A DNA stretch of 64,000 nt from Botryllus schlosseri (lineage: Eukaryota), in the NCBI GenBank assembly GCA_051294905.1, contig CM119371.1, positions 40,550,001 through 40,614,000 on the forward strand, given 5' to 3'. The first letter of the stretch is position 1; the number at the start of each line of letters is the position of its first letter. A program made the translations under genes and the position numbers. This document shows positions 1 to 63,698 of the stretch, piece after piece. The notes beneath the pieces are model-generated. The model saw nothing but the letters and a program-made list of their open reading frames with translations, had not been told where the DNA came from and did not search any database.

Positions 1-268
1 AATTGTGATATGTTTGTTAGATGCATCCAATTCAACTAGAAGTGTCTAGTATCCAACACTCGTAATATCAAAAAAGTACTTGCTACGTTGTAATTCACTT
101 AACGTGTTTTGTATTGTTGTTCATTTGTAGTATTGATTGTTTTTGAACCCCCAAATAATAATTCCCGACATGAAACTAAGCCGCCGAAAGTCGTTACCAT
201 CACAAAGAAACAATTTGCACGATGTTTACTAAATGTATCCTATAGTTAGGTGTACTGGAATTATTTGT

Positions 269-271
<3 letters not shown>

Positions 272-313
<42 letters not shown>
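272..313 (+). repeat. (AC)21 microsatellite, left arm
   Basis: Read directly. Confidence 0.97.
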
Positions 314-315
<2 letters not shown>

Positions 316-2044
316 TCAGAGAAATTGGAAATTTTTCCGTTGTCATTCGCTAAAGTAAATGTCATCACAATACTCTGTCACTAAAAGACGTTACTTGGAC
401 GTGCTTGAATTCTAGACATAGTTCTGATTTACCCAACACAAGACCCAAGGACAACCCTAGTTTCAGCCGAACACAGATATCCAAAATATCACACACTTCG
501 CTATTCCTAAAGCACAAACACACGATACAAAATAATACTTGTTGTGTTGTTGCGGCATCATCACTCAACAATATCACCCTCAATACAAATGATGTTTATG
601 TGTAACATGCTATTGATTTGAACCACACCCACCTGACGGAAGAGGATTTACTCAATCTTTACAAAATGGATATTGACCAACATCACATCACCGGATTGTA
701 TCTGTTTCGCTGGATACGAGTTATGTTAGTTTAACAGTAAACAAATTTCACCCTCTTGGATTATGAACTCAATGCGTTAGCAGTCATTCAATATTTTGTT
801 TGTGTCAACTAGTTACTTGGTATGTTACTCCACAACTCTTACAAAAGTACGAAGGATATTAACATCGCACTAAGTAATTTACTTTACTCGATATTCTCGC
901 ATTACGAAACTAAAGAATGGTTGGTTAGACTCTACAAACTGTTTCGATATCACATGACCTTTATTGTCTGAATGGGTGTTCATGTGTCTTAAGAACCAAA
1001 TAGTTCAACACAACACTAGTACCAACAGAAACATCAGAGTTGTTTACACAAAAGTTTGTATGCGTGCAGTATGCGAATACCATGTGTAAGTCCAACACAA
1101 TTGTGGTATCCATCCGGTTTAGTTAACACAATTTATGACACCGAGGTCACCTCATCTTTCGTAAGACAACAAACCAACCAAGGTTTCAGGATATGTCCGT
1201 GTCATAGCAATAAATCAGCTACTCCAACAACAGAGTACATATGTTTTCTAGTTACGGTGCTTACATCTTACACACAAATCAATCTACTTTGCTAAAAAAA
1301 GTGCTGAGTCATCAAGTGATTGCCCTAACAACAAAACAGCTAAACGTACTATCATACAAAATGGCCGTTATAGTCACCAACGGTACATGGTACAAGTAAC
1401 AAGTCTCGAGAATCCAGTTATTGAAAAAACATGAAAGTGTTTCTCCTGCACCAAGTCGTTATGTTGACGAAAGCGTATATTGTAATATCATGATCGATTT
1501 GCATTCGTTGGTCACAAAATGTCACTACTCTAAATAATTATTTTTCACTCAAACACAAACGCATACTTGTCGCTAATCGTTTTCATCAAGCACGTGTTCA
1601 AGAAACCTGCTACGACATGAATTGTTATTTTTTTGTTGTTGTGTAAATAGGTAATAATTAATTTTAGTAACACTATATCAACATCATCTAGTTGCGCGAA
1701 TAGATTTACACGTGGTCTTGTGGTTTTAATCGAAGTACACAGCGCGGTCTAACGCGGAGTCATCTCTATTGTACAGCAACTCGGAAATCGAAATGCATGC
1801 ATTAACATTTAAACAGCGGTCGTGTTTCGTCACGCGAAAAATATCTTCACCACCGCGATACTCTGCACAGGGCGTGCAAATCCTTTTCACACTCGTAATA
1901 GTATACCAACGGCTACCGGTGACAACGTTTAACAATACCAACGACACTAAACATACGATACCTACCCAAGTAAAATTTCCATTTTCACCTGGAGGTCGGT
2001 CGTAACCCGAGTAGAAATACCATTATCCTTTGGAGATTTATCGT

Positions 2045-2560
2045 TTACCCAGTGTAACAAACCCCTTTTCCTTTGGTAATCTATTTTTGCCCTGGATAAC
2101 AAACCTTTTTCACTTGGAAATATATTTTTTCTCTTGGTAACAAACCTTTTTCCCTGAGCAACAAACCATTTTCACTTGCAAATATATTTTTTCCTGGGTA
2201 ACAAACCTTTTTCACTTGGAAATATATTTTTTTCCCTGGGTAACAAACCTTTTTCACTTGGAAATATATTTTTTCCCCGGGTAACAAACCTTTTTCCCTG
2301 AGCAACAAACCATTTTCACTTGCAAATATATTTTTTCCTGGGTAACAAACCTTTTTCACTTGGAAATATATTTTTTTCCCTGGGTAACAAACCTTTTTCG
2401 CTTGGAAATATATTTTTTCCTTGAGCAACAAACCATTTTCACTTGGCGGGTCGTCGTTTACCTGAGTAAAAATATCATTTTCCTTTGGAGATCTGGCGTT
2501 TACCCAGTGTAACAATACATTTTCTCTTGGCCATCTAGCTTTTCCTAGAGTAACAAAACC
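2045..2560. repeat. ~21-bp minisatellite with ~42-bp and ~144-bp higher-order units (left arm)
   Basis: Alternating monomers such as CCCTGGGTAACAAACCTTTTT, CACTTGGAAATATATTTTTTT and CCCTGAGCAACAAACCATTTT. The core is about 2085-2445 with degenerate flanks. Confidence 0.92.
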
Positions 2561-4979
2561 ATTTTCATTTTGAAATCTGACAAACACACCTGACAATTTG
2601 GTATTTGTTGTATTGACGATAGTTTGAAATAGATTACAACGAACAGTGACGGAAATATACACGGACTACCGGTTTCAGAGTATACCCCCTTCAGTCGTAT
2701 CACATCAATATCATCGGTTACCCACATACAATATCCTCTTGTACACCGAAATGCATGTTTTGGAAAATTGGACAATAGACTTCGATAGTTCTGTGATGTC
2801 CGGGTTCGTGCTTTGGATTTTCCAGAGTCAAAATGTCTGAATAAAACACCTCCTCGACGATGGTTGGTATGTGGATAACGGGGTTCGGAAGACGGTTGGA
2901 TTTATGTCACCCATCGCGATAACAATTCCAGGTCGAGTTTTCCCCCGCATGTTTACTATATTGTGTCTTTATTGGTCAATGTATGTCTCGACATTCAGTT
3001 TGAAATCGGAAACCCTGATAAAGTATGTAACCGGATCCGGATATCAACTCTGAATCGATAAACCAATGAACAATATTCAAAGTAAACATGTTACATTCCA
3101 CGAAAAAATACCATCCAGACATACGTCGCGCTTGTTTGCCCACATCAGTATACGCGTAAATGGAGGTGTGTGACATTGCATGCAATGTGTTGGTATACAA
3201 ACATCGATCCACAGACATTATCATAGCCGGTAGTTTTGATGTAGATCGAATGTCATCACACCCGATAACAATGTCATACCAATAAGCCACATTGCAATGA
3301 CTCTGAGTCCGCGCTATTACATCGATATTTCGGTGCCGTTCACTGATTTACTCGATGGTGTTATCGTGTTGTAACATTACAAGACAGTTATGGCCCTATC
3401 TCCGGACAGACCACCCAGACCAATTGGATACATCGGTCAATATCCGTCGTGTTGTCGACACCGAAGTTTTCTGCTGAGACTGCAGCGTTTGACCAAGGTG
3501 AACTATCGAATCACGGGTGCTCGAAATGATAGCGATCAGTCTTTCACTAAATCACGATACATGGATGTCACTACTCCCACATAACGACTCCAGATAAATA
3601 TCGTGTACAGTGATTCTGCAAATCTCGGACTGATACTGTGATCCAATAAGGTGTGTTTCTGTGGAATGAAGACTGCAATCGTACACCACAATAGAACACT
3701 ACCTCGCGATTTCACACGCAATCATAAAACACATCATCGTAAGGGTCCAGTTCGTCCGGTGACATTTCGAAACGGTCGTCGCCACAAGAGATCGGTATCA
3801 TTTTGAAACGACATCGTCCCAAGTCTATTGACGTCGATTCTGTTGGTCATGTCAATCCGTTTCACAATCCTCCATTTTTCAACTCCCCGCACCATAGTGT
3901 TACGACACAGACAAGAAGCGTCGGTGGAAATAATAAAACACGGAAAGCACACTTTGGTGTTATTTGACATGGATTTTACATCCAACGAACCTTACATTCG
4001 AGCGATGCATTGGAATGACGCTTGTATTATTGACGTAGAAGGAACAGAAATGTATCGGTTTATTGGTTTCGTACATATCCAACTAAAACCAGGGTATGTG
4101 ATTGTGCGTGGTTCGCATATTCGACTGTGAACGCTCTATTGATATATACAGTATAGTTCACTTTCGCCGTCGTGCGAATAACCCATGTTACGGTTCCGTG
4201 TTTGTGTGTCTGTATGTCATGCTTCAGATTGACTCAGAGTCATTGCAATGTGGCTTATTGGTATGACATTGTTATCGGGTGTGATGACATTCGATCTACA
4301 TCAAAACTACCGGCTATGATAATGTCTGTGGATCGATGTTTGTATACCAACACATTGCATGCAATGTCACACACCTCCATTTACGCGTATACTGATGTGG
4401 GCAAACAAGCGCGACGTATGTCTGGATGGTATTTTTTCGTGGAATGTAACATGTTTACTTTGAATATTGTTCATTGGTTTATCGATTCAGAGTTGATATC
4501 CGGATCCGGTTACATACTTTATCAGGGTTTCCGATTTCAAACTGAATGTCGAGACATACATTGACCAATAAAGACACAATATAGTAAACATGCGGGGGAA
4601 AACTCGACCTGGAATTGTTATCGCGATGGGTGACATAAATCCAACCGTCTTCCGAACCCCGTTATCCACATACCAACCATCGTCGAGGAGGTGTTTTATT
4701 CAGACATTTTGACTCTGGAAAATCCAAAGCACGAACCCGGACATCACAGAACTATCGAAGTCTATTGTCCAATTTTCCAAAACATGCATTTCGGTGTACA
4801 AGAGGATATTGTATGTGGGTAACCGATGATATTGATGTGATACGACTGAAGGGGGTATACTCTGAAACCGGTAGTCCGTGTATATTTCCGTCACTGTTCG
4901 TTGTAATCTATTTCAAACTATCGTCAATACAACAAATACCAAATTGTCAGGTGTGTTTGTCAGATTTCAAAATGAAAAT

Positions 4980-5495
4980 GGTTTTGTTACTCTAGGAAAA
5001 GCTAGATGGCCAAGAGAAAATGTATTGTTACACTGGGTAAACGCCAGATCTCCAAAGGAAAATGATATTTTTACTCAGGTAAACGACGACCCGCCAAGTG
5101 AAAATGGTTTGTTGCTCAAGGAAAAAATATATTTCCAAGCGAAAAAGGTTTGTTACCCAGGGAAAAAAATATATTTCCAAGTGAAAAAGGTTTGTTACCC
5201 AGGAAAAAATATATTTGCAAGTGAAAATGGTTTGTTGCTCAGGGAAAAAGGTTTGTTACCCGGGGAAAAAATATATTTCCAAGTGAAAAAGGTTTGTTAC
5301 CCAGGGAAAAAAATATATTTCCAAGTGAAAAAGGTTTGTTACCCAGGAAAAAATATATTTGCAAGTGAAAATGGTTTGTTGCTCAGGGAAAAAGGTTTGT
5401 TACCAAGAGAAAAAATATATTTCCAAGTGAAAAAGGTTTGTTATCCAGGGCAAAAATAGATTACCAAAGGAAAAGGGGTTTGTTACACTGGGTAA
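4980..5495. repeat. ~21-bp minisatellite, right-arm mirror
   Basis: Reverse complement of 2045-2560. Confidence 0.92.
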
Positions 5496-7224
5496 ACGAT
5501 AAATCTCCAAAGGATAATGGTATTTCTACTCGGGTTACGACCGACCTCCAGGTGAAAATGGAAATTTTACTTGGGTAGGTATCGTATGTTTAGTGTCGTT
5601 GGTATTGTTAAACGTTGTCACCGGTAGCCGTTGGTATACTATTACGAGTGTGAAAAGGATTTGCACGCCCTGTGCAGAGTATCGCGGTGGTGAACATATT
5701 TTTCGCGTGACGAAACACGACCGCTGTTTAAATGTTAATGCATGCATTTCGATTTCCGAGTTGCTGTACAATAGAGATGACTCCGCGTTAGACCGCGCTG
5801 TGTACTTCGATTAAAACCACAAGACCACGTGTAAATCTATTCGCGCAACTAGATGATGTTGATATAGTGTTACTAAAATTAATTATTACCTATTTACACA
5901 ACAACAAAAAAATAACAATTCATGTCGTAGCAGGTTTCTTGAACACGTGCTTGATGAAAACGATTAGCGACAAGTATGCGTTTGTGTTTGAGTGAAAAAT
6001 AATTATTTAGAGTAGTGACATTTTGTGACCAACGAATGCAAATCGATCATGATATTACAATATACGCTTTCGTCAACATAACGACTTGGTGCAGGAGAAA
6101 CACTTTCATGTTTTTTCAATAACTGGATTCTCGAGACTTGTTACTTGTACCATGTACCGTTGGTGACTATAACGGCCATTTTGTATGATAGTACGTTTAG
6201 CTGTTTTGTTGTTAGGGCAATCACTTGATGACTCAGCACTTTTTTTAGCAAAGTAGATTGATTTGTGTGTAAGATGTAAGCACCGTAACTAGAAAACATA
6301 TGTACTCTGTTGTTGGAGTAGCTGATTTATTGCTATGACACGGACATATCCTGAAACCTTGGTTGGTTTGTTGTCTTACGAAAGATGAGGTGACCTCGGT
6401 GTCATAAATTGTGTTAACTAAACCGGATGGATACCACAATTGTGCTGGACTTACACATGGTATTCGCATACTGCACGCATACAAACTTTTGTGTAAACAA
6501 CTCTGATGTTTCTGTTGGTACTAGTGTTGTGTTGAACTATTTGGTTCTTAAGACACATGAACACCCATTCAGACAATAAAGGTCATGTGATATCGAAACA
6601 GTTTGTAGAGTCTAACCAACCATTCTTTAGTTTCGTAATGCGAGAATATCGAGTAAAGTTAATTACTTAGTGCGATGTTAATATCCTTCGTACTTTTGTA
6701 AGAGTTGTGGAGTAACATACCAAGTAACTAGTTGACACAAACAAAATATTGAATGACTGCTAACGCATTGAGTTCATAATCCAAGAGGGTGAAATTTGTT
6801 TACTGTTAAACTAACATAACTCGTATCCAGCGAAACAGATACAATCCGGTGATGTGATGTTGGTCAATATCCATTTTGTAAAGATTGAGTAAATCCTCTT
6901 CCGTCAGGTGGGTGTGGTTCAAATCAATAGCATGTTACACATAAACATCATTTGTATTGAGGGTGATATTGTTGAGTGATGATGCCGCAACAACACAACA
7001 AGTATTATTTTGTATCGTGTGTTTGTGCTTTAGGAATAGCGAAGTGTGTGATATTTTGGATATCTGTGTTCGGCTGAAACTAGGGTTGTCCTTGGGTCTT
7101 GTGTTGGGTAAATCAGAACTATGTCTAGAATTCAAGCACGTCCAAGTAACGTCTTTTAGTGACAGAGTATTGTGATGACATTTACTTTAGCGAATGACAA
7201 CGGAAAAATTTCCAATTTCTCTGA

Positions 7225-7226
<2 letters not shown>

Positions 7227-7278
<52 letters not shown>
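7227..7278 (+). repeat. (GT)26 microsatellite, right-arm mirror of 272-313
   Basis: Read directly; 5 units longer than its mirror. Confidence 0.97.
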
Positions 7279-7281
<3 letters not shown>

Positions 7282-9159
7282 ACAAATAATTCCAGTACAC
7301 CTAACTATAGGATACATTTAGTAAACATCGTGCAAATTGTTTCTTTGTGATGGTAACGACTTTCGGCGGCTTAGTTTCATGTCGGGAATTATTATTTGGG
7401 GGTTCAAAAACAATCAATACTACAAATGAACAACAATACAAAACACGTTAAGTGAATTACAACGTAGTAAGTACTTTTTTGATATTACGAGTGTTGGATA
7501 CTAGACACTTCTAGTTGAATTGGATGCATCTAACAATCATATCACAATTTACTTTTACAATAATCAAAGTCTTAGAGTGTATAACCTCGCGATATTTTAC
7601 ATTTAGCACGCACAATGGGGAGTTACTGAAATGATTAAGAATTGATCGCTAGCTTCGAACGGTACTCGATACTCAAAGTGATATTTTCACACTCTGTAAA
7701 GTGCATATGTTTCAATTCTCTGTCGCAAATTCCGACAGTAACGACATTGATGTTAAATCCTCACCCGTGGTTATTGTAAGTGAATCCTAAACATCGCAAC
7801 AGTCGGTATGGAAATCGAACGCGTGCGTACTTTTAGATAGGTGACACTAACAAGTTTATTACACCGTGAAATACTCTGAAACGTCGATTCGTGATTGTGT
7901 TAGCTATATTCATCTTCCATATCTGTGGACACAAAGATATCTTGACTTTGGTTACAACTCACTCGAAACGAATTGTTGCGGGTAATCTAGAAAAGCACAA
8001 GTCGAAGACGAATGATTTGATTTCAATAAACTAAAAAATTCCTTTTGTTTTGATGTTGGATTTAATGCAATTTGTATGACTATACCGAATTCGAATCCGA
8101 AAGTGCAATGTTACTTTAGTAGAAAAATTGGATGACTCGCATTTTGATATTGATAGATGTGTAGAGTAATATTACTAGTTTATAAAATCTCGGTAATGTT
8201 TTTTCGTCATGTCTGTGATCAACAAATATGTGATCAAGTCTTACCATTCGATATTAACTTTCGCAGTCGGTGTAATTTGTTGAAGTAACAATACCGACGA
8301 GTTCAATAATATTCCCCATCGATGCATTCGAATAATCCGTCAGCTGCAAGCGGATTTAAAACTTGATGGTGTTTCGCGGTTAACTCAAGTCAGTGGTCGT
8401 GTTTGTGTTGATTTCAGGAATGATCATGACGAGTTGCCTGGGTAGATTAGTTAATGTGGTTGTAACTACGACCGTACAGAGTTGCTGACACCCCAATATC
8501 TTTTACGCTGTAATATACGGATTTATTTGTGATAAATTAATTCTCAGTTATTGTTCAGACATTCAAATCTCGTATACTCAAAATATAATATGTCCAAGTC
8601 AAATCGTATATGCACCGATTAGTAAATACTTTGTCTTCAGAATAGTAACAACCTTTACAATTGAATAAAAAGATAGAGCATACGAATACAACCAGGATGA
8701 ATTAATTCAAATTTGTGAGTTGTAATGATATATTCAAGTAAGGGAAACTAGATTTTTAACAATTGTTAATGTTGTGAATAATTCTTTTGAGTTTGAAATG
8801 TGGCTGGATCAAAGTTGGTAGTCATGTTTGTCAAACCTATTTCACTTCACGCAATGTCAAAGTCCAAATATTTCATTCTGGATTATTTGGATTTACCTTT
8901 AGTACATCCCGCGAATGGATTTAAAGTTGGCAAATTACCAAAATGATTGAATAATATCGGGTCAGAGATAGTTGGTATTGATTCTATAAGTGTTAAAACA
9001 GCGGCGTGGAATGTGTGAATGATCCGATGAGGGTGAATGTTGGTGTCAGTAATATTCAGGTTACGTTCGATTCAACAGATCGCGTTAATAGGATTTGAGT
9101 TGGGTCGAATCAATACATTCAAATACGATTCAACTTGATTTGTGTAGTGAGTTACACTG

Positions 9160-9795
9160 ATGACTCCCACTTTATCAAACGATATGACATCGAACAGCGT
9201 CAACACTATGCAAGTCGGAGCAACTTCAAATTTTCACGTCGGCGTCAAATTCGTCTCATCACCCAAAAGAGGTGGCGTTAGCCAATATCTCAAAGGTATA
9301 TTCATCGATGGCAATAACGAAGAGATATCTTTCACGTGTTTCAATCGTGATTTGTTCGGGAACATTGAGAAAGCATTCACCAAACGAAAAAAACTCATGG
9401 TCAAATCCGGTTGGGTTCAAATTGATAAATTTACTGGAAAACCCACTGTATTACTTGTTCGGGCTTCGTCAGTAACTCTACATGGAAAATCGAGACATAC
9501 GACTGAAGAATACCCATTATTGACCTGTGAATCGGTATACGGAAATAAAGATGAATACGTCTCGATCGCCGCTACTTGTGTTTCTCGAGAGGAGAAGATG
9601 GTTAATTCTGGTGCCGGAAAGGAGTTGAAATTATACAGTTTTACATTGAAGGATGATACTGGCGAGGTGGTTTTGGATCAATGGAACAAAGCCTCGCTCG
9701 TACCCGGGAAGAAATATCAACTCACTCGTGTTAAAAACTGTGTCGGCAGCTTGAAAATCGATCCGTTAACTAGACTTGTTGAATTGAAAGAATAG
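9160..9795 (+). CDS. Tandem OB-fold, RPA/SSB-like single-stranded DNA-binding protein (211 aa)
   Basis: Intact intronless ORF. The C-terminal half (VSIAATCVSREEKMV...LYSFTLKDDTGEVVLDQWN...LVPGKKYQLTRVK) fits the RPA70/archaeal SSB OB pattern (DxTG-x-V-x-L-x-x-W). The N-terminal half (YLKGIFIDGNNEEISFTCFN) fits a second OB fold. Judged by eye. Confidence 0.75.
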   Translation: MTPTLSNDMTSNSVNTMQVGATSNFHVGVKFVSSPKRGGVSQYLKGIFIDGNNEEISFTCFNRDLFGNIEKAFTKRKKLMVKSGWVQIDKFTGKPTVLLVRASSVTLHGKSRHTTEEYPLLTCESVYGNKDEYVSIAATCVSREEKMVNSGAGKELKLYSFTLKDDTGEVVLDQWNKASLVPGKKYQLTRVKNCVGSLKIDPLTRLVELKE

Positions 9796-10383
9796 TTTGC
9801 ATATTTGTATACCACAATACAATATTTCGCGTAATATGTATGACCTATGTGATTCGACAACTGGATTAGCGCGGTGTTGTTCTACTGGTCGAGGTGTGAA
9901 AATTGTGCTATCGCGATGAAGTTGCGACTGTGAACAGCAGACTATTCTGTAGGCGCGAAACAGCGAATAAGCCGAAAGTATTATTTAGGTAGCAATCAAT
10001 AGCGAGGAAAGAGAGAACACGATCGGTCATTTGACACGACTAAACTACGACATCATATATCATAATTTACGATCAAACTATTTCGCACTGACTGGTCTAG
10101 TGTAATATTCGATAGTAGCGGCTGGACGAGAAATAATTCAGTGCGCAGGTCATTCGGAATATAGGTCGCACGCACACTGCGTAATCCTCAGAACCGATCG
10201 CGTTTCCGTTTGCGCGGTTATTGTTGGTGACTATTCAACACCGCGCGAGAGATGTCTGAAAGTGTGACAGGCGAATCGCCGCCACCGCCTATAGCAAAAA
10301 AGGCGAGTCACGACCACGAGTTTTCACGATATACACATTAACAAAGATTCATTCACATGACTATTTACTTGATACATATTCAA

Positions 10384-10595
10384 CACCGGTCGAGAGATGC
10401 ATATACCGAAAAGGGTCACCGGTTCAAGACGAGTTTCGAGGCACCGGTCGAGTGATCGCTATACCGAAAAGGGTCACCGGTTCAAGACGAGTTTTCGCGG
10501 CACCGGTCGAGAGATCCCTATACTCATAAGGCACCGGTCGGGTGGAAGGGGGGTCTGAAAGGGTCACCGGTTCAGGACGAGTTTTCGCGGCACCT
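10384..10595. repeat. Subterminal ~58-bp direct repeats of element A with 7 CACCGGT motifs
   Basis: Unit CACCGGTCGAGAGAT..TATACCGAAAAGGGTCACCGGTTCAAGACGAGTTT(T)CG starts at 10384, 10442 and 10501, followed by a partial copy. Confidence 0.9.
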
Positions 10596-10650
10596 CACCA
10601 CCCCGCCCATAAGAGACAATGGCACACCACGACCGATCTATATAACTACT

Positions 10651-11208
10651 AATGGTCATTTACATCAGGCCGATATTTCCTATTTTTGATTCCGTAACCG
10701 TCGACTTGTAGCACGGCACACTTCTAGGCTTCTGTAAGACACCGCTTATACTAGAGGTCGCCAACTCAAAACGGGTCGGGGGCCACTTTCAAATTTCGTG
10801 GAGGCCGCGGGCCGCATGATTTCAATTTCGAGATAAAATAGGCCACATAGTTATCTCGTCCCCTACTAAACCCGAATGAATTGATATCTTGGTAAATTTT
10901 TTGTACCAGGCTTATCGAACGCCTTGAAATTTTAATTATGAATTGCACCGTGTGTTGATTAATCAGAGAGAAGCATACATGGTGATGCCTGTATGACGAT
11001 GTTGTTCTCAAATCCACATTGTCCTTGTAATTATTGACAAAAATGGCTTTAAATTTGCATTGCTGTCGTTAAAATACATTCATTAAATACGATTTATTCC
11101 TTGTATATGAGGATAAATGGGCGAATAAGGTATCGATTCAGCAATCCGGCCCGCCAACTTCTTAATTTTCCTATATCCGGCCCGACGACTGGAGAAGTAT
11201 CGCCCCTG
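10651..11208 (+). mobile_element. 3' part of a hAT MITE interrupted by element A
   Basis: Colinear with 13561-13796 plus 14590-14929; ends GGAGAAGTATCGCCCCTG. Confidence 0.85.
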
Positions 11209-12047
11209 CACTAAACAGTAGGCTACAACAAACCTCGCGGATAAGTAGTGACAAAAACGTTTGGCCCCCGACGAAGTGCTGTTTCGATCCTATATATAAA
11301 CAAACTGTCCACAGAATATTACTCAGTAGGGTTGCACAAGTCTATAAAATATAAAAATTTTAACTATAATCTCAAAAATCTGCATCAACAGAAGCGCAGC
11401 AGTTCCGCTTCACTGAATCATAATCTATCTTTTGAAGATAGCTCTTCTTATACAGGAGTTTGGCAACTTGCGAACGTTCAAAACTGCAAATCGGTGTTCA
11501 TTTTTGCATCATTGCAGCGAAAACCGATTGTGCCATTAGTTTGTCATTCAATCACATCGTTTGGTTCTTGCGTTACGGCTCTTTTATCAAACCCATATAC
11601 AGTCAACACTTGATGATACACTATATAATTAGTGGATGGCTACTCCTACATATTTACCATCTTGATGATTTGCTGTTGATGTTGAGAACCAATTGAATAT
11701 CTTGCTAATATTCCGCCGGATATATTCCCACCAACCTTCATTTTCCATTTTCCTCTCATCTGTCACAAAATGATACGCCACTCAATTAGAAACATGACAT
11801 CTCACCCGAAAAATATCAATCACAGTTGAAATTATGATCTCAAATGGAGTAAATGGAGGGATCGTCAACTGTGGGAAGTAGGCTACCGAAATCTAAATTT
11901 CGATCGCGGACCGATCAAGTTTGGCTTAGCCTTGTGTAGCTAGTTTTAGTTTTTGCAAGTAGTGTTTCAAGTTCAGAAACCAATTATAATTGATTACACT
12001 GGACATCAAAATGTCACTCAATTTTGTGAACGAGAACGCGAGTATTT

Positions 12048-12625
12048 GAGAGAGAGAGAGAGAGAGAGAGAATCTTAATTCGTATACATTACATATCAAC
12101 ATAACACTACAAAAATGTAACAGTGAAATGAGACATGCAAGGTAGACGGGAGGCTCGATATGACATAGTCTTCAGAGCCGAGCCACCCGGGACGGGAGCA
12201 ATTTTCACAGTCGATAACTAATGAAAATAAAAATAAACTAAACTAACGAACGAAAGGAAAAATAAGACACAGTATCATGGACCAATTTGAAATGCAACGC
12301 AAATACAATTTACCGGTGGTTAGAGATAAGAGAATGAAAACATTGTTTTTTAAAAGCTCAAGAGTATAAATTGCGGAGATTAGGCGGCAGCTTATTCCAA
12401 ACATTGACACCAATAAAACTGATTGAATTTTGTACTAGACTGGTAGAGTGGTGTTGCACAGACAGAGACAAGTTAGAAGAAAATCTGGTATGATGTTGGT
12501 GGGTATCTGAAGGTATCTTGAACAGATTATCAAAATGTAGTGGCAGTTCACCCTGATGATAGCTATGCATGAATTTCATTACCTCGAATTTGAAAATATC
12601 TTTTTCAAGAGTTAACGGCACACTA
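12048..12625 (-). mobile_element. 5'-truncated LINE (CR1/L2 group, Crack/Daphne-like): end of ORF2, 3'UTR and (TC)12 tail
   Basis: The peptide HQHHTRFSS...SISFIGVNVWNKLPPNLR (12358-12621) is typical of the post-RT C-terminus in this group. A microsatellite tail lies at 12048-12071. Confidence 0.8.
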
Positions 12626-13251
12626 ATGCTAGATTTTCCCGCTGATTTCGAATCTGACTTTATTTTTCTTTTAACACATCAGGTTTGCAAGATGTCATCG
12701 AAGTTGTATTTTCAAAAAATAAATGCGTAAAAGTTTCCGTGACACTTAAAATGTTAAGCATATGATTTTTTGCACAAATGACATATTGACGGTATAATGT
12801 CGACTTCGGACGAAGCGAGAAGAGCTTTATCTTCATGAAAACCATAAGGATATTCCCTCAAATCAGCCGAAATGGTGACCTACCCGACGAACTGCCTATA
12901 TATTATGTTGCTGAATCTTATTATGACGCCGCGGTATAACATCCAGTTGCAGCCCTCTTCAATATCGTATTCTACAGATCTTGGTAAATAGTTTCCATAG
13001 CCCAAATGTGCTTTTTCATTACAAACAGCATGATTAGTAAGGATTTCATTGAATAGCTTACAAAACTAGTTCGATGCTTTCAAAAGATTCTTTCACATGA
13101 TAACAATGTGTTGACGATGGTATATTCTTATCGTCAAGCAGTAACAAGTTCTGTGGATTTCCAATTAGCCCGTTATATTGGTATTTGAATTGTGACGACA
13201 CATACCTGACGATCGACGACTAAATATGAACCTCTTTAGCATACTTTAGGT

Positions 13252-14929
13252 CAGGGGTGGGCAACATACGGCCCGCCGGCCGGATCCGGCCCGCGAAGGG
13301 ATTTTGTCCGGCCCGCGGACAGTTTTCTGTCTTACATGATAATGTGGCCCGCGGCTCCAGTAATCAGAGAGTCCTATCTACTTGCGTAAACGTCAAATTT
13401 TAGTGCCTGTATATTAATATGCACATGTATGCGCACTGCGCAGTGAGCGAGGGTGGTGCTTACTAGTAAGTTAGTCGAAGCGAGAAGACTTGCATTATCG
13501 GCATTTACAATGTACTCAACCCTAATGTCATTTGTGGTAATGATGGTGTTTGTCGATTACAATGTTCATTTACACTAGGCCGATATTTCATATTTTTGAT
13601 CCTGTAACCGTCGACTTGTAGCACGACACACTTCTAGGCTTTTGTAAGACATCGCTTATGCCAGGGGGCGCCAACTCGAAACGGGTCGCGGGCCACTTTC
13701 AAATTTTGTAGAGGCCGCGGGCCGCATGAATTCAATATCGAGATAAAATAGGCCATACAGTTGAACAACCACGCTATATCTCGTCACCTACTAAACCAGG
13801 GTGGCCAACCTGCGGCCGTAGAAGGGAAATTTGTGGGCAAGTAATTCAATTAGTACCGTATGTGCGGGAGGCCGTCGACATGCAATTTGAATTTACAAAT
13901 TGAGTCTCGATTTTTTGAGAGATCCCAATCAATCTTGAAATTTTCTTCGCGCTGCGTCCGATTCAATTTGCCTTCGTTTATCGATTTTAATATAGTGGCG
14001 CCCTTTGCAATTATAGCCCCACAGTACAGACGTGAACAGCAGACGAAAATGATGCGCCTCATATAGAAGTACCAACTCGGAGTCTTGTACTCCTCACTAT
14101 ACGGACAATCTTGATGGTAGGTCAAGAAATAATAGCATGTAACCAAGTGAATAATTATAATTGGCCCACCCAAAGATGAATCATCATTGATATCTTGTCC
14201 TAAATTATCGAAAACCACACCCTCCATCAAATCTACAGTTTAATTTGATGACATCGGATGAGAAATAATATGAAAAATACTATTATTTGTGACGAAATTC
14301 ATGTGTGAATCGGAAAATATTTCCCCGCTTCGCGCGATTATGTACTGCCCATAACATAACCATGACCAGTCACCAGTGACCACTCGCGAAGTCGGTGCGT
14401 ATAGTATAAGCCTATGTGATTAAATGGATAAGTCCGGAGTTCACCGGAAAAGGACATGGACACTATAACATGTGTATTTGGCGTCCAGATAGCTCATTAC
14501 GACTATGCCCTGGAATGCGGCCGTAGGCTACATGAGTAGTCGAAATGCGGCCGTGAATGGCAAAAAGGTTGGCCATATCTGTACTAAACCCTAATGAAGA
14601 GATATACTGGTGAATTTGTAGTACCGGGCTTATCGAACGCCCTGAAATCTTAATTAGGGATTGCACCGTGTTGATCGATCAGAGAGAAGCAAACATAATG
14701 GTGCCTGTATGACAATGCTGTTCTCAAATCCACATTGTCTTCGTCATTATTGGCGAGAAATGGCTTTGAAGTTACATTGCTGTCGTTAAAATACATTCAA
14801 TAAATACGATTTATTCCTTGTGTATATGTGGATAAATGGGCGAATAATGTATCGATTCAGCAATCCAGCCCGCCAAGTATTTGATTTTCCTATATCCGGC
14901 CCGCCGACTGGAGAAGTTGCCCGCCCCTG
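13252..14929 (+). mobile_element. Non-autonomous hAT (Buster/Charlie-like) element
   Basis: TIRs CAGGGGTGGGCAAC / GTTGCCCGCCCCTG, perfect 8-bp TSD CTTTAGGT, GGCCCG subterminal motifs. Confidence 0.92.
13797..14581. mobile_element. Nested hAT MITE
   Basis: TIRs CAGGGTGGCCAACC / GGTTGGCCATATCTG and TSD TACTAAAC. The paralogous copy has the empty site (single TACTAAAC) at 10864-10871. Confidence 0.92.
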
Positions 14930-16704
14930 CTTTAGGTCTTCTTGGCGATGAGAACTATATTTCCAATTTCAAACGGATACGGTATCTAAGCTTGTTGCTT
15001 GGTAATATCATATTACATTGTACTACTAATTATGAAAGACCGCTGTCTTTTACCGCGGTGATCAAATATCACAAAGTCATGGATAGTCCCGGTCTTGAGT
15101 GCGTGCCGTCCTAGCACTAAGAACTTACCGCCTAAAAGTAATTCGAGGATAGTTCCAAGCAATTTTGGCGTTATATCCGTAAGCAGGATTCGTGAAATAT
15201 TGAGTGAAAGAATGGTCGCCAACTGAAAACGGCTCGTTGGCCACTTTTCAAATTTGGTAGAGGCCGCGGGCCGCAAGAGTACATTATCCCGACAGAATAG
15301 GTCACACAGTTGAGCAACCACGATTTTTAAAACTTTACGGCAGGACAACGCTGCACTCAAACATGGGCAACGGGCATTAGTTACTACAAAAGAAATAATA
15401 TTTTAATAAGGAAATTAGGAAAGGCCTACAAAAAAAAATATCATGATCATGCGAATTCTATTTTAAACTATAAGCTGTTCAGTATACCCGACAAAGCCTT
15501 TCATGGACTGAGGAATCGATATTGGGGCTAGCGAGACACTGAACTAATTGAATGATTATGGCCCCGCATCTTGATGATGTAAGACAGTGGTTCTTAACCA
15601 TTTTTCCTCCAGCACCCCCTTTCAAAAATTATTGTGCTCCAGCGCCCCCAAACCTTATATTGTAAGGAATGTAGTAAAGACAATGAGTAAGAGTTTGGGC
15701 CGTAACAGCACTTCGTTAACCCCCCTAAAATCGATTGCCTTGCGCACCCATAGCGTGATAAACCAAACTTCTGAAGGCTTTGCCCCCAAGAACCCCGTAG
15801 CGTGATTTCGATGGTCAGCAAAGTTTGTGTGGCCAGGTCGCCCTAGGTACCAAAAGTTTCTATTATGCATGAATGAATAGGTGGTATTTACATATATATG
15901 TCGCTATAAACTTTTTCTCCTCTCAGCCCACGTAATTAGATTTACCAGTAGCGCTGAGTGAGCTGCTGTATGGGAAAATAAAGGGCACGCAATGAAAAAT
16001 TAAACATATTTGGGAGTGCCCGTAGGTACAATTAATTCGTTACTAGGACCGTAACAGCACTTCGTCAGCCCCCCCCCCCCCCCCCCCCAACAAAAAAAAA
16101 ACTGTTGGTCTTGGGCCCCTCATCGGGTGATAAACCAAACTGAGGGGCTTTCGCCCCCAGACCCCCTTTCGGCTATCCGCTATTTGCTGAAACTAGTCAT
16201 CTACACTAGGTGTCCATTTACTGAGGCAACTATTCTCGCCTAGACGCACGAAACGCGAAAAATTTCACTAATTAATGATTGAATTGGTAAATATGATCGT
16301 GACTTGCATGTATATTGTGATCAATTTTCATCCTCTCTCTGCTCGCGTAAACAGATTTACCGGTAAAGCTGAGTGATGTGTGATTGAAAAGGTAGGACCC
16401 CTCAATAATAATTATACATCTTCGGACGTATGCCCGTCGGCAGGAACGAAACGGCACTTCGTCAAGCCCCCCAAAAAACTTGGGTCTTGGGATCCCATAG
16501 GGTGATAAACCGACCGCCCTCCATCACGTCGTTCGCTTTTGCCAGGAATCAGCTGAACTGTATAGCGAGCCAGTGCGAAGCGCGAAAACTTTCGATAATT
16601 CATAATATGATCAATCGGTCAGTAAGAATTGCATAAATATTGCTATCAATTTGTTGTCTTCTCAGCTCACGTTACGAGATTTACCGGTAGAGCTGAGTGA
16701 GGTG

Positions 16705-37240: not shown

Positions 37241-37308
37241 ATTCCCGCGCGCTCTTAAACAAAACACTTCCTAACCCTACCACCTAATACTAAGACGCGC
37301 GCGGGAAT
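37241..37308. other. Hairpin axis of B: GC clamp, one bulged C and a 33-nt G-free loop (37258-37290); identical copy with loop at 46204-46236
   Basis: ATTCCCGCGCGC-TCTTA [AACAAAACACTTCCTAACCCTACCACCTAATAC] TAAGA-C-GCGCGCGGGAAT; mirror sum 74549. Confidence 0.97.
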
Positions 37309-42352: not shown

Positions 42353-42452
42353 NNNNNNNNNNNNNNNNNNNNNNNNNNNNNNNNNNNNNNNNNNNNNNNN
42401 NNNNNNNNNNNNNNNNNNNNNNNNNNNNNNNNNNNNNNNNNNNNNNNNNNNN
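42353..42452. other. 100-N scaffold gap joining two overlapping contigs
   Basis: Sequence after the gap restarts at the equivalent of 33503 (offset about 8946-8950). The ~2 kb before the gap accumulates single-base indels relative to the other copies. Confidence 0.9.
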
Positions 42453-58779: not shown

Positions 58780-61700
58780 TGTCGTCTCCAAGTAGAGACT
58801 TATGAAGAATGTGATTGGAGTAGGCTGACTCTGGATCTCCTCCCCAACTGGTACGAAACAAGAACTCCAAATGGACGAATATCTTATTAAAATACCGTTG
58901 AAAAATTGCTGGTAATATCCTTGTAACAACCAAATACTCCCGTAAATAAACAATAAATGTAACAGACCAACAACAACAAAACAAAGCTGGCTACTCTCAC
59001 CGCGTCGCTCACGAAATGAGTGCACGTGCGCTCCAAAGCAGTCCAAGTGGCGAGTGAGCCATAAAGAAAATAATATCCACCGTGACATAGCCGGCCCTGT
59101 GACGAAGTGTGAACTGCCAAAGCAATTACATAGAGTCACAATAACTGATGAGCGGTGGTAATGAATGTTAACAAAATGTAAAAATACACAGGGTAGTTGT
59201 ACGAATATGAACTTACGAATATTATGTTCGTAGGTTCTACGTACAGTACAAAACCTCACTCTCCTGACCAAGACATTACAGTCAGGTAGTATGATTAGGA
59301 TACAATAAAGGGTTGCCTTATCGACATAATTACGTCGCAGGCAATTATTTTGCGAACACAAAATTGTGCAATATCAGGAGTACAAGTGTCTCCAAAGATG
59401 TGAGAAGTCATCTGAAGTCAGATCTGCTGCCCATGGACATTCAAGTATTCAAAATCGACATAATGCCCCAATGAACGATGAACTAGAAGTGAATTGACAA
59501 TTAGGATTAGTAAAATTGGCATTAAATGCAGAAAAAGTAGTGTCTAATGACATTTTCAACAATAACAGAAGTCTTGTTATTGCAATCAAGGGAATTAACC
59601 TCAGTGGAATACACCTAATTTGTTCGAAGGGTTTTGTCACAACCCATAGAAGAGTGGCCAAGTTATCATGAAGTAACTGCTGACTTCGTAATCCAGGTAA
59701 CGCATAAGAACTTGTTACCAATAATACAGTAAAAATCATTTAGATCAATAATTGGGTGGACATTAGACGCGTCCTTCAGGTATCATTGTGCAAAAATATC
59801 TGCGCTTGGGGTAAGATTTTCAATAACAGGAAAATGACAAATAGCTAATACATCATTCAAGTTGATGCCCGTGCTTTACCCGATTCCTTTAACGGATATG
59901 GGCACAAATTTATGCTGGCGGGGAAGGATGGCAGCGGTATTAATCAAACAAGTCAGCGGTTCACATCTGATAACCAATTGGTTTAGGAAGAAAAAAGTAA
60001 ACAGGCAGTTGGTAGCCTCAGAAATAAGGAATGCATGTGTGATAAAACTGGTAGAAGCTACCAGACAGGTGATTATCACCAAAGGTGTGGACAGATGTAC
60101 AGGACAACTTATCTCGGCAATTGCAGGAGATAGAGTTGTAACTGTGTTGTTGCTGGCAACAACAATCGATTTAGGATATAACGAACATTTATATGCGTCA
60201 TTTAATAAAGTGCTTTGAGCACAGCCACATCCATGAATTTTGCAATGACATGTGGATGGGTAATAATTGTGATCATGATCACAGAATGAACGATTACGGC
60301 GTACCAGACTCTCTTCTACGAGTCCATGACGTTGCCGAACTTGCATCTTTTGGATTTCTTCAAAGTTGAAGAGAAGATGAAGATCTTGACACAGGATACA
60401 TGACGAACGTAGCTCCTTTTCAGAGGTACATCGACGCATCGAGCCGGAATCCATAGATGTAGAATTCACCTCTATTGCAGTTTTGCGCGGATTCTTCGAG
60501 TACATCTTGTGAGGTATGTTTGGATCGATGTCTTCGGGTTCAAGTGAACAATCAAATTCATTGTTGACCGGACCAAATGGTGACCGAGTCAATGCTATTT
60601 CCTTCTTGACAAATTCAACGAAATCGTTGCGATTTGGATTAACACTGGCTTTTTCCTGGTGAATTACAGGAGATGAAGGTGGAATAACAGGACATTGAGC
60701 AGGCTGCAGCAGCTCACAATTGTGAGTGTTAACTGTTGCGGGGTGCGTAGAACTATCAATGAACATTTCACAAGTGTGAAAGCCTTGATTAAAGTTGGTC
60801 GCATCAGCCGCCGCACTACGGGTGGCTGAGTATTGACAATTAGAGGATATTTTAGGTTGCGCAGCCGGCCCATTATAGGCTTCTGAGTAACGGCAACTGA
60901 ATATCAAATCTGGTTTCACAGCCGGCCCATTACAGGGGACTGAGAATAGGTAGTCGGATGAAATAACTGGTTTCACAGCCGACCCATTACGTTGGGCTGA
61001 GAACCGGTAATTGGATATCTTCTCTGACAACGAACATCCTACAACAAGTGGAGTAGGGCAAGTCGCGAAAGTTTGACATTGAGTGGTAATGGCCCGAGTA
61101 TCGAGAAAGTCTTCTGTGAGTGGTTTATCATTAATAGCGTTGCCAACTGGCAGTCCTTTGTTGTGGGTGTCATTACTATCCAAGCCGCAGCAACCTTTAT
61201 GACTGGTTACAGAAGCTAATGATCCAAATTGTGACGAAACAATTGCTTTATACCGTTCAAGTTTTGACTGAGCATTGAAAAGTTCCCATTCCAACCTTTT
61301 CAAATTGTCTTCTTCATGCGTCCACAATGTCTGTAAGTTGTCAAGTGACATACTTACACTTTCAGCAGTAATAAGTTTACGGAATGTGCCATCAGCAATA
61401 TTCTTTACATATAGACACAGGTCACAAAATGACAAAATTCTTTCTAATATTGATTCGGCATAGACACTGTCCTCGGTTATCTTTTCTTTGATACCGGTAG
61501 TAAGATTGTTCAACTGGGTATTGACTCGATGGAATGTCTCGTCAAGACTGTCTTTTGCAGCCAGAACAGTTCGGGGAGTAGCTCCACTCAAACATTTAGT
61601 AAAGTAGGTATCGGCAGCGTGGAAGTCTCTTGCTAGACCGGCCAAAATATTGTCAGTGACTTGCATATCGAAGCCTTTGACTGTAATCTCCTTATAGGCA

Positions 61701-62122
61701 TTAGGGTCTCTTCTTGGACCAAAAGTAATATCATCGACTTGCGCATCGAAGTCTTTGACTGTAGATGGAGGATCCATAACGAAGTTAATGGAATACACTC
61801 AATTTTTCAACCTTTGTCGTCTCCAAGTAGAGACTTATGAAGAATGTGATTGAAGTAGGCTGACTCTGGATCTCCTCCCCAACTGGTACGAAACAAGAAC
61901 TCCAAATGGACGAATATCTTATTAAAATACCGTTGAAAAATTGCTGGTAATATCCTTGTAACAACCAAATACTCCCGTAAATAAACAATAAATGTAACAG
62001 ACCAACAACAACAAAACAAAGCTGGCTACTCTCACCGCGTCGCTCACGAAATGAGTGCACGTGCGCTCCAAAGCAGTCCAAGTGGCGAGTGAGCCATAAA
62101 GCAAATAATATCCACCGTGACA
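58780..62122 (-). mobile_element. Non-autonomous BEL/Pao-type LTR retrotransposon (3343 bp)
   Basis: 308-bp TG...CA LTRs at 58780-59087 and 61815-62122 (2 mismatches seen), 5-bp TSD CTAGG, CAGGGCCGGCTA just before the 3' LTR, a gag-like ORF and no pol. Confidence 0.9.
59876..61798 (-). CDS. Gag-derived protein of the BEL/Pao element (640 aa) with degenerate triple zinc knuckle
   Basis: Helical/coiled-coil N-terminus. CILCQDLHLLFNFEEIQKMQVRQRHGLVEE...DH...STCHCKIHGCGCAQSTLL matches the spacing of the BEL/Pao Gag CCHC cluster with several ligands lost. Four ~19-aa internal repeats. Confidence 0.7.
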   Translation of the reverse strand: MYSINFVMDPPSTVKDFDAQVDDITFGPRRDPNAYKEITVKGFDMQVTDNILAGLARDFHAADTYFTKCLSGATPRTVLAAKDSLDETFHRVNTQLNNLTTGIKEKITEDSVYAESILERILSFCDLCLYVKNIADGTFRKLITAESVSMSLDNLQTLWTHEEDNLKRLEWELFNAQSKLERYKAIVSSQFGSLASVTSHKGCCGLDSNDTHNKGLPVGNAINDKPLTEDFLDTRAITTQCQTFATCPTPLVVGCSLSEKISNYRFSAQRNGSAVKPVISSDYLFSVPCNGPAVKPDLIFSCRYSEAYNGPAAQPKISSNCQYSATRSAAADATNFNQGFHTCEMFIDSSTHPATVNTHNCELLQPAQCPVIPPSSPVIHQEKASVNPNRNDFVEFVKKEIALTRSPFGPVNNEFDCSLEPEDIDPNIPHKMYSKNPRKTAIEVNSTSMDSGSMRRCTSEKELRSSCILCQDLHLLFNFEEIQKMQVRQRHGLVEESLVRRNRSFCDHDHNYYPSTCHCKIHGCGCAQSTLLNDAYKCSLYPKSIVVASNNTVTTLSPAIAEISCPVHLSTPLVIITCLVASTSFITHAFLISEATNCLFTFFFLNQLVIRCEPLTCLINTAAILPRQHKFVPISVKGIG

Positions 62123-62191: not shown

Positions 62192-63698
62192 ATAAAAAAC
62201 GACACTGAGCCTGAAAGAAGCTCACAGAAAGGCCGTTAAGATTTCGTGCAAAGCGTTTGAAAGTAGCTGCCGAAGAATGGGCGTGTCACCGACCATAGAA
62301 CGGCGAGAAGACTAGTAATCAAGAAACCACGGCTCTTGATTGGATAATCGGCTATGCTTCAATGACCACGTCAGCAGCAGCTTGCTGATTAGGTGAACAA
62401 GGAGTCTGCTACTGGCGGCTATTCTGAAAGCGCATTGTAAGTAGGTTGACAGATAATGATTTAGGATTGATTCAAGGTATCTTGAGGTACGAAATACATG
62501 ATGTACAAACAACAGCTGCTTCACAAAAGCATCTAAAGCATGACCGCTTCATCGTGAAGGAAACCGCTGTAGCCTATATATGCCTTGTTTTCAACGAGGG
62601 TAAGCATAGGCGCTTATGCAAGTGGCAATTGATTCCTAGATTCAGAAATAATATATCATTATTGAATTCAAAGACAAAGCTTAACAATGACACTATAAGT
62701 TAGGTGATCTTATTGGGCTCAGGTTGCCTTACATAGTTGAAGTTTTGAATGCTCTAGCGATCGGCTGAATCAGACGGTTAGGCTTAGCACTCACCAGATG
62801 TTTGCAGCAAATTGAATTCACTTGTAAATGTTTTCAAAGTCCCTAATGATGTCGCAGAAACGAGGTTTAAATGCAAGCACAGGCCCTGCTTGATATGATA
62901 TGCAAACTATGTTGGATACTATGCACTATGCAGCATTGTCTGTGTTTACCTTTACACCCCTTTTCTGCGCGATTATTAAGGAATTTGGCATATCATATCC
63001 AGCATATTATGTGCTTACTTTTACGCCTCTTTTCTGCGTCATCATCAAGGACTCTGACAACACTTGCAAGTAAATACATGTTGATGCAAGCATCTGACAA
63101 GTGCCAAGCATAACCCGCTGATTCAGCCGACCCTTAGAGCTTTCAAAACTTCAACTATGTACTACAACCTGAGCGCAATGAGATCACACAAACTATAGTG
63201 TCATTGTTAAGCTTTATCTTTGTATTCAATAATGATATATTATTTCTGAAACTAGGAACCCGTCGCCACTTGCATAAGCGCCTATTCTTTCCCTCGTTGA
63301 AAACAAGGCATATAGGCTACGGCGGTTTCTTTCACAATAAAGCAGTCATGCTTTAGAAGTTTTTGTGAAGCAGCTGTTGTTTGTTCATCATGTATTTCGT
63401 ACCTCAACATACCCCTAATCAATCCTAAATCATTATCTGTCAACCTACATACAATGCGCTTTCAGAATCGCCGCCAGTAGCAGACTCCTTGTTCACCTAA
63501 TCAGCAAGCTTCTGCTGACGTGGTCATTGAAGCATAGCCGATTATCCAATCAAGAGCCGTGGTTTCTTGATTACTAGTCTTCTCGCCGTTCTATGGTCGG
63601 TGGCACGCCTATTCTTCGGCAGCAACTTTCAAACGCTTTGTACGAAATCTTAACGGCCTTTCTGTGAGCTTCTTTCAGGCTCAGTGTCGTTTTTTTAT
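62192..63698. mobile_element. ~1.5-kb fold-back (long-TIR) non-coding element
   Basis: 62192 to about 62905 is the reverse complement of about 62983-63698, with a loop of about 80 bp. Confidence 0.88.

Follow-up and report, generated by a model that had tools for sequence, protein, structure and literature searches.

The window analysed here, a 64,000-nucleotide stretch of Botryllus schlosseri DNA, begins inside a large palindrome (element A), which continues past the left edge and ends on the right within a MITE. The locus therefore raises the question of what kind of element this is and what its left end, beyond the window, should look like. In our judgement, element A is likely a young insertion, about 13.75 kb long with (AGT)2//(ACT)2 ends, that belongs to a very abundant family of non-autonomous fold-back elements derived from Mavericks/Polintons and lies in an older hAT-type MITE. 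What is understood of how Mavericks/Polintons replicate and integrate still comes largely by inference from the genes they contain. If a palindrome that spans a whole element and has Maverick ends is abundant, this would show that both ends by themselves suffice for mobilisation, and it would also show fold-back copying in the germ line. Moreover, the split MITE supplies a pre-insertion site, so that the duplication length and the terminus of element A can be checked to the base.

According to the accessible text of PMC8097293, Maverick ends carry (AGT)2//(ACT)2 or (AG)3//(CT)3 motifs and a 6-bp duplication, and intact vertebrate Mavericks measure 12.7-24.6 kb, with inverted repeats of 46-1,447 bp and eight genes. 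The Maverick/Polinton group is defined by pPolB and integrase in the part of PMC6431247 that was available. For Anolis, the available sections of PMC3014272 give few Maverick copies and no non-autonomous ones. Terminal inverted repeats (TIRs) of about 2 kb that bear genes, as well as polinton-related insertions lacking polB, are described for lepidopteran polintons in the accessible portion of bioRxiv 10.1101/2025.02.07.637071. The TIRs of a C. elegans Polinton are given as 744 bp in the accessible portion of 10.1101/2024.01.15.575659, and integrated invertron plasmids as having long inverted repeats in that of PMC1864894.

Right terminus of element A and the interrupted MITE

The right terminus of element A was sited at ACTACT (10645-10650, plus strand), the (ACT)2 Maverick end motif, which stands at a break in homology to a paralogous MITE copy; AATGGTCATTTACA follows directly on its 3′ side. 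At an offset of 2910, ungapped identity to the paralogue was 14/60 in 10591-10650 versus 63/70 in 10651-10720. A two-state likelihood placed the breakpoint most likely at 10651 (posterior 0.57; 10650-10652 together 0.84). A preliminary description had regarded the right end as pinned by an interrupted MITE, and the homology does begin at 10651, directly after ACTACT. Its alignment of the following sequence with 13561 onward was likewise borne out, with 21 substitutions in 202 positions between 10651-10852 and 13561-13762. The window contains 28 occurrences of ACTACT, and the chance of such a motif ending 1-5 positions from the break was estimated at p ~0.0004-0.002, or up to 0.003 when the other common Maverick end motif was also allowed. 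The right terminus of element A is fixed to the base by the split MITE. The six bases that follow it, AATGGT (10651-10656, plus strand), are a candidate for the right-hand copy of a 6-bp target-site duplication, as judged from element B (see below) and the Maverick 6-bp rule. Subterminal 58-bp repeats are located close to the right end (10384-10594). When public contigs of four runs were mapped, no entry at 10650/10651 was present in the part listed, which comprised 24 loose ends, 15 joints and 32 contig pieces out of a set with a further 6293, 841 and 151,787, respectively.

The MITE part cut off by element A is the 3′ portion of 558 bp (10651-11208, plus strand), which ends in a degenerate terminal repeat and is adjoined by CACTAAAC (11209-11216, plus strand) as the candidate right copy of the 8-bp MITE target duplication. 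In the paralogous copy (13252-14929, plus strand) both ends are present, the terminal repeats agree at 13/14 positions, an 8-bp CTTTAGGT duplication is found at 13244-13251 and 14930-14937, and a transposase is lacking, as expected of a hAT-type MITE. MITEs of the hAT superfamily have short TIRs starting with CAG and an 8-bp duplication. On these features we take both the split MITE and its paralogue to be of hAT type, and both fit with nothing unusual. The paralogue had been called intact, which applies to its ends; its interior, however, is split by a 0.79-kb insertion, a nested hAT-type element at 13797-14581 flanked by an 8-bp TACTAAAC duplication. The nesting of one element inside a MITE is ordinary. 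On the far side of the insertion, 10864-11208 of the split MITE matches 14582-14929 of the paralogue with 38 substitutions, and the two copies differ by 10-11%. Without the nested element the paralogue has a length of ~885 bp, and by comparison with it the MITE portion missing 5′ of the break amounts to 309 bp. Contigs joining 13774 to 10852 were present in all four runs (8, 4, 2 and 1 contigs), so MITE family members lacking the nested element exist. Within the window no MITE 5′ end was found upstream of 10651, the three matches at ≤2 mismatches all lying downstream; the missing 5′ part therefore lies upstream of base 1 or was lost. A short stretch at 15214-15322 is a third copy (~82%) of a segment from the MITE interior, and its own start resembles a hAT terminal repeat, which suggests that the MITE is composite.

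Palindromic arms and the predicted left end

Element A is composed of a left arm, visible at 1-3309 as the reverse complement of 4231-7549 and continuing past the window edge, an unpaired central loop of 921 bp (3310-4230) and a right arm (4231-10650), which is 6,420 bp long if the symmetry runs to the end and whose mirror image is visible up to 7549. The visible arms are 99.8% identical, with 5 substitutions and a microsatellite of 21 versus 26 AC units (10-nt difference, 10 gap columns). A tandem array with units of ~21/41/144 bp at 5094-5486 is mirrored at 2054-2446. The loop gave no match elsewhere within the window at E<0.1. An arm divergence of 0.15%, as against 10-11% between the MITE copies, marks element A as a young insertion and the MITE as its older target.

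A second palindrome, element B (30318-52659), served for comparison. Both of its ends carry the Maverick motif (AGTAGT...ACTACT), whereas for element A the right end reads ACTACT and the left end lies beyond the window. Element B is flanked on both sides by TACGTG, an exact 6-bp duplication with p ~2e-4 by composition. Its arms pair to the tips, with 1 substitution in the 1,224 terminal bases, and enclose a loop of only 44 nt (37253-37296). The arm lengths of 6,935 and 6,417 bp differ by one 518-bp repeat unit, and the arms contain 202-bp and 516-bp tandem arrays. No stop-free frame of more than 163 aa was found in element B. The sole assembly gap of the window (100 N at 42353-42452) also falls within it, and across this gap 8.8 kb are repeated with 0 substitutions. 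On account of this overlap, the apparent size of 22.3 kb is most likely 13.4 kb (13,396 bp). That element B might be a replication concatemer with four arms was ruled out, as the duplicated stretch straddles this one N gap of the window and has 0 substitutions. Elements A and B have only the terminal six letters in common and, judged by their sequences, are different families. Element B nevertheless shows the whole anatomy foreseen for element A, that is, both ends, the 6-bp duplication and arms reaching the tips.

Mirroring of position 10650 leads to position -3100 and, if the element is symmetric to the tip, to a total length of 13,751 bp. The arithmetic behind the earlier estimates of ~3.1 kb upstream and ~13.75 kb in total was thus right. 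We infer that the left end of element A mirrors its right end, and it is quite likely that AGTAGT, the AATGGT duplication and the 5′ part of the MITE are all found there. That they also lie within ~100 bp of -3100 we consider moderately likely. The distance may shift because the arms of element B differ by one 518-bp repeat unit, and the upstream scaffold may be broken or misjoined because element B carries an assembly gap. The left end had been announced as an exact prediction; this applies to the terminus and the 6-bp duplication, which are predictable letter for letter, whereas the MITE 5′ part is derived from a paralogue with a divergence of 10-11%.

Genes and abundance of element A

A 211-aa ORF (9160-9795, plus strand) in the right arm encodes a protein with a predicted tandem OB-fold (RPA70AB/Teb1/HIN-like). 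By mirroring, a second, inverted copy of this ORF is predicted at -2245 to -1610. Its relatives are P0001, which is near-identical (97%), and P0002, which is distant (27%); P0003, which Pfam identifies as a bacterial repeat protein of 2,620 aa, was set aside as a chance match. A structure model of modest confidence (pLDDT 62, pTM 0.42) was built from 3 sequences. Foldseek matched it to the AB domains of Teb1 (E 4e-8) and to RPA70 (E 2e-7 to 4e-7), and the dsDNA-binding HIN domains matched nearly as well (E 4.5e-7; VIA Z 9.3). By VIA, residues 17-111 (Z 8.7, rmsd 2.7, 89 aligned) and residues 128-211 (Z 10.4, rmsd 2.8, 82 aligned) each correspond to a single OB domain. Baculovirus LEF-3 was among the matches to viral models, the Atlas features agreed on an OB-fold at 0.94, and Pfam PF01336 stayed below the cut-off. 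The OB-fold assignment made for the arm gene at the outset agrees with these matches of the predicted model to tandem OB-folds (Teb1 AB, RPA70), which support an OB-fold architecture of the 211-aa protein. The predicted fold suggests that the protein binds ssDNA, and a dsDNA-binding role of the HIN type would be a real alternative. The two-OB architecture predicted here is that of the tandem modules of RPA70 DBD-A/B (1jmc, 1fgu), Teb1 AB of Tetrahymena (3u58), HIN (4l5q) and LEF-3; the protein differs from these in its identity of 9-22% and in standing alone with 211 aa. Searches of the contig collections confirmed 0 of 10 candidate stretches for the OB protein, with no relative in the IMG/VR contigs, 0 of 357 for the alignment of 3 sequences, and 0 of 3 for P0002.

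The loop contains an ORF of 93 aa (3849-4130, plus strand), a putative gene, with one relative, P0004 (88/93 identical, 95%). No family was found for it, all Atlas matches remaining under 0.9. Because there is one near-identical relative and no Atlas match of at least 0.9, no function is claimed for this ORF. The only stop-free frames of at least 150 aa in 1-10650 were the OB frame (214 codons) and two frames of 194 codons each that span the tandem array; the visible part thus offers no space for an intact pPolB, integrase or capsid gene. In the ORF survey of 1-10650, no frame for pPolB, integrase, capsid, packaging ATPase or protease was present. Judged by its visible 10.65 kb, which contain no core genes, element A is not an autonomous Maverick.

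For the analysis of abundance, the public contigs of 4 of 24 listed runs were used, and the depth reference was the median over four flank bins of low depth. In all 12 bins of 7560-10523 the summed contig depth exceeded this flank median, namely 4,100-16,800x in run X1, 1,300-5,200x in run X2 from the same sample and 260-2,300x in run X16 from another sample; summed contig depth is not copy number, and fragmentation inflates the ratio. The family of element A is very abundant. The unbroken high depth from 7560 to the junction shows that the stretch from the visible arm to the terminus contains no single-copy DNA. A high contig depth was also recorded at 12006-12746, where another repeat family adjoins the single-copy flank.

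At five of the 20 variant sites listed for element A (40 of 788 listed overall), the present copy is at variance with 99.8% or more of the family depth in X1. The sites at odds with nearly all of the family depth are 8067, 8173, 8845, 9458 and 9603. Such sites bear on whether the arms are re-copied with each jump. For one arm ~2.3 post-insertion changes are expected versus the 5 sites listed (P ~0.09), a weak hint that the arms of element A are re-copied from each other.

Seawater metagenomes contain about one fifth of the sequence words. Free virus as a source of these matches was rejected: X7 covers the bins of the MITE as well as those of element A, as expected for repeat-rich host DNA.

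Class, rival explanations and proposed origin

The likeness of element A to Mavericks/Polintons consists of the (ACT)2 right end, a similar size and a 6-bp duplication, which is seen in element B and predicted for element A. The differences lie in proportions and numbers. Compared with the repeat lengths in the accessible text on vertebrate Mavericks, the arms of element A are far longer, measuring no less than 3.3 kb and probably 6.4 kb each, which would together make up 93% of the element. Its abundance also greatly exceeds that of the Anolis elements, for which PMC3014272 reports few copies. With the lepidopteran polintons, as far as the accessible part of that preprint describes them, it shares genes that are carried twice, in inverted orientation, within long terminal repeats, the second OB copy being predicted. 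The lepidopteran TIRs, on the same partial source, hold core genes (hexon, adenain) in a mostly unique element, whereas element A is almost all repeat and carries an OB-fold gene. The type represented by element A is an unusual variant of Maverick/Polinton elements. No description of whole-element palindromic Mavericks was found in the literature searched, with subscription journals, Repbase and supplements being outside its scope.

Derivatives of a comparable kind have been reported. Kapitonov and Jurka are said to have described, in 2006, non-autonomous, helper-dependent Polinton derivatives with 6-bp duplications in zebrafish, which reportedly arose by deletion and had a short central palindrome only. 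They would resemble element A in depending on a helper and differ from it in the extent of the palindrome. Vierula and Bertrand reportedly found, in 1992, that the kalilo plasmid, which is protein-primed, gave a hairpin deletion derivative; copy-back defective viral genomes are a related kind of derivative. In both, a protein-primed linear replicon gives rise to a hairpin or duplex with two identical ends, which is a likely mechanism for element A as well. These derivatives belong to a mitochondrial plasmid or are extrachromosomal, whereas element A is nuclear, integrated and heritable and forms a high-copy family.

Three other explanations were weighed against this assignment. The element could belong to the same family and have the same right end, with the left arm truncated, internally deleted or nested into, or with the MITE 5′ part lost along with it; the left end would then differ in place or in content from the one predicted. 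That the arms of element B differ by one 518-bp unit and that nested insertions are common in the neighbourhood would fit such decay; the visible arms of element A are, however, 99.8% identical, which points to a young copy with little time for it, and we regard this explanation as unlikely. The palindrome could instead have been created during library preparation or assembly (fold-back reads) from an ordinary, asymmetric Maverick-ended element, the real left part of which, possibly with core genes, would lie elsewhere. The assembler did stumble on element B, leaving the 100-N gap and the 8.8-kb overlap with 0 substitutions. Unlike a fold-back artefact, though, the arms of element A differ (5 substitutions, 21 versus 26 AC units) around a unique 921-bp loop, and the palindrome of element B is closed by an exact 6-bp duplication, which makes an artefact very improbable.

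Nearly as improbable, in our estimate, is a fold-back element of another DDE integrase/transposase family with 6-bp duplications, of which the end motif would be convergent and the OB gene captured host cargo. In its favour, the six terminal letters alone tie element A to Mavericks, the best structural matches of the OB protein are cellular (RPA, Teb1, HIN), and this protein is without relative in the IMG/VR contigs. Against it, the unrelated palindromes A and B both carry the (AGT)2//(ACT)2 motif, and element B has the 6-bp duplication. Furthermore, in the portion of PMC8097293 available this motif is the commonest Maverick signature, and the predicted length of element A falls within the 12.7-24.6 kb given there for intact vertebrate Mavericks.

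As a fold-back Maverick/Polinton derivative, element A would work like a helper-dependent one. An autonomous helper sharing its terminus was not present in the window, and the exact 23-nt terminal pattern gave 0 matches in viral and metagenome contigs. Its origin may lie in protein-primed strand-displacement copying, during which the polymerase would switch onto the new or the displaced strand and copy one Maverick end back on itself, resulting in a palindrome. Because both ends are then the same origin, the polymerase and the DDE integrase of a helper Maverick could copy element A and insert it with a 6-bp duplication, in the present case presumably at a point 309 bp from the MITE 5′ end. Each copying round would re-pair the arms and keep them near-identical. 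The OB protein would most likely act as an ssDNA coat that prevents premature snap-back of the displaced strand.

A more far-reaching reading, which we put forward as tentative and on balance doubtful, is that element A represents a heritable copy-back 'satellite' of Polintoviruses, that is, hairpins which outgrow their helpers by orders of magnitude, retain a helper-like length and carry their own SSB-type gene in each arm. If so, the helper-like length would appear as if sized for the capsid, and the SSB-type gene would manage the snap-back of the displaced strand. As endogenous elements of the germ line they would correspond to defective-interfering genomes, and they would preserve intermediates of Maverick replication as a fossil record.

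Further repeats were observed at the right end of the window. An element of 1.5 kb at 62194-63695 has inverted arms of 386 nt that are 95% complementary. Two directly repeated copies of 300 nt or more (99%) are located at 58780-59079 and 61815-62114, 3,035 bp apart, and between them lies a 633-aa ORF on the minus strand (59876-61777) with no Pfam match. Together, the direct repeats and the ORF (58780-62114) are possibly an LTR-type element.
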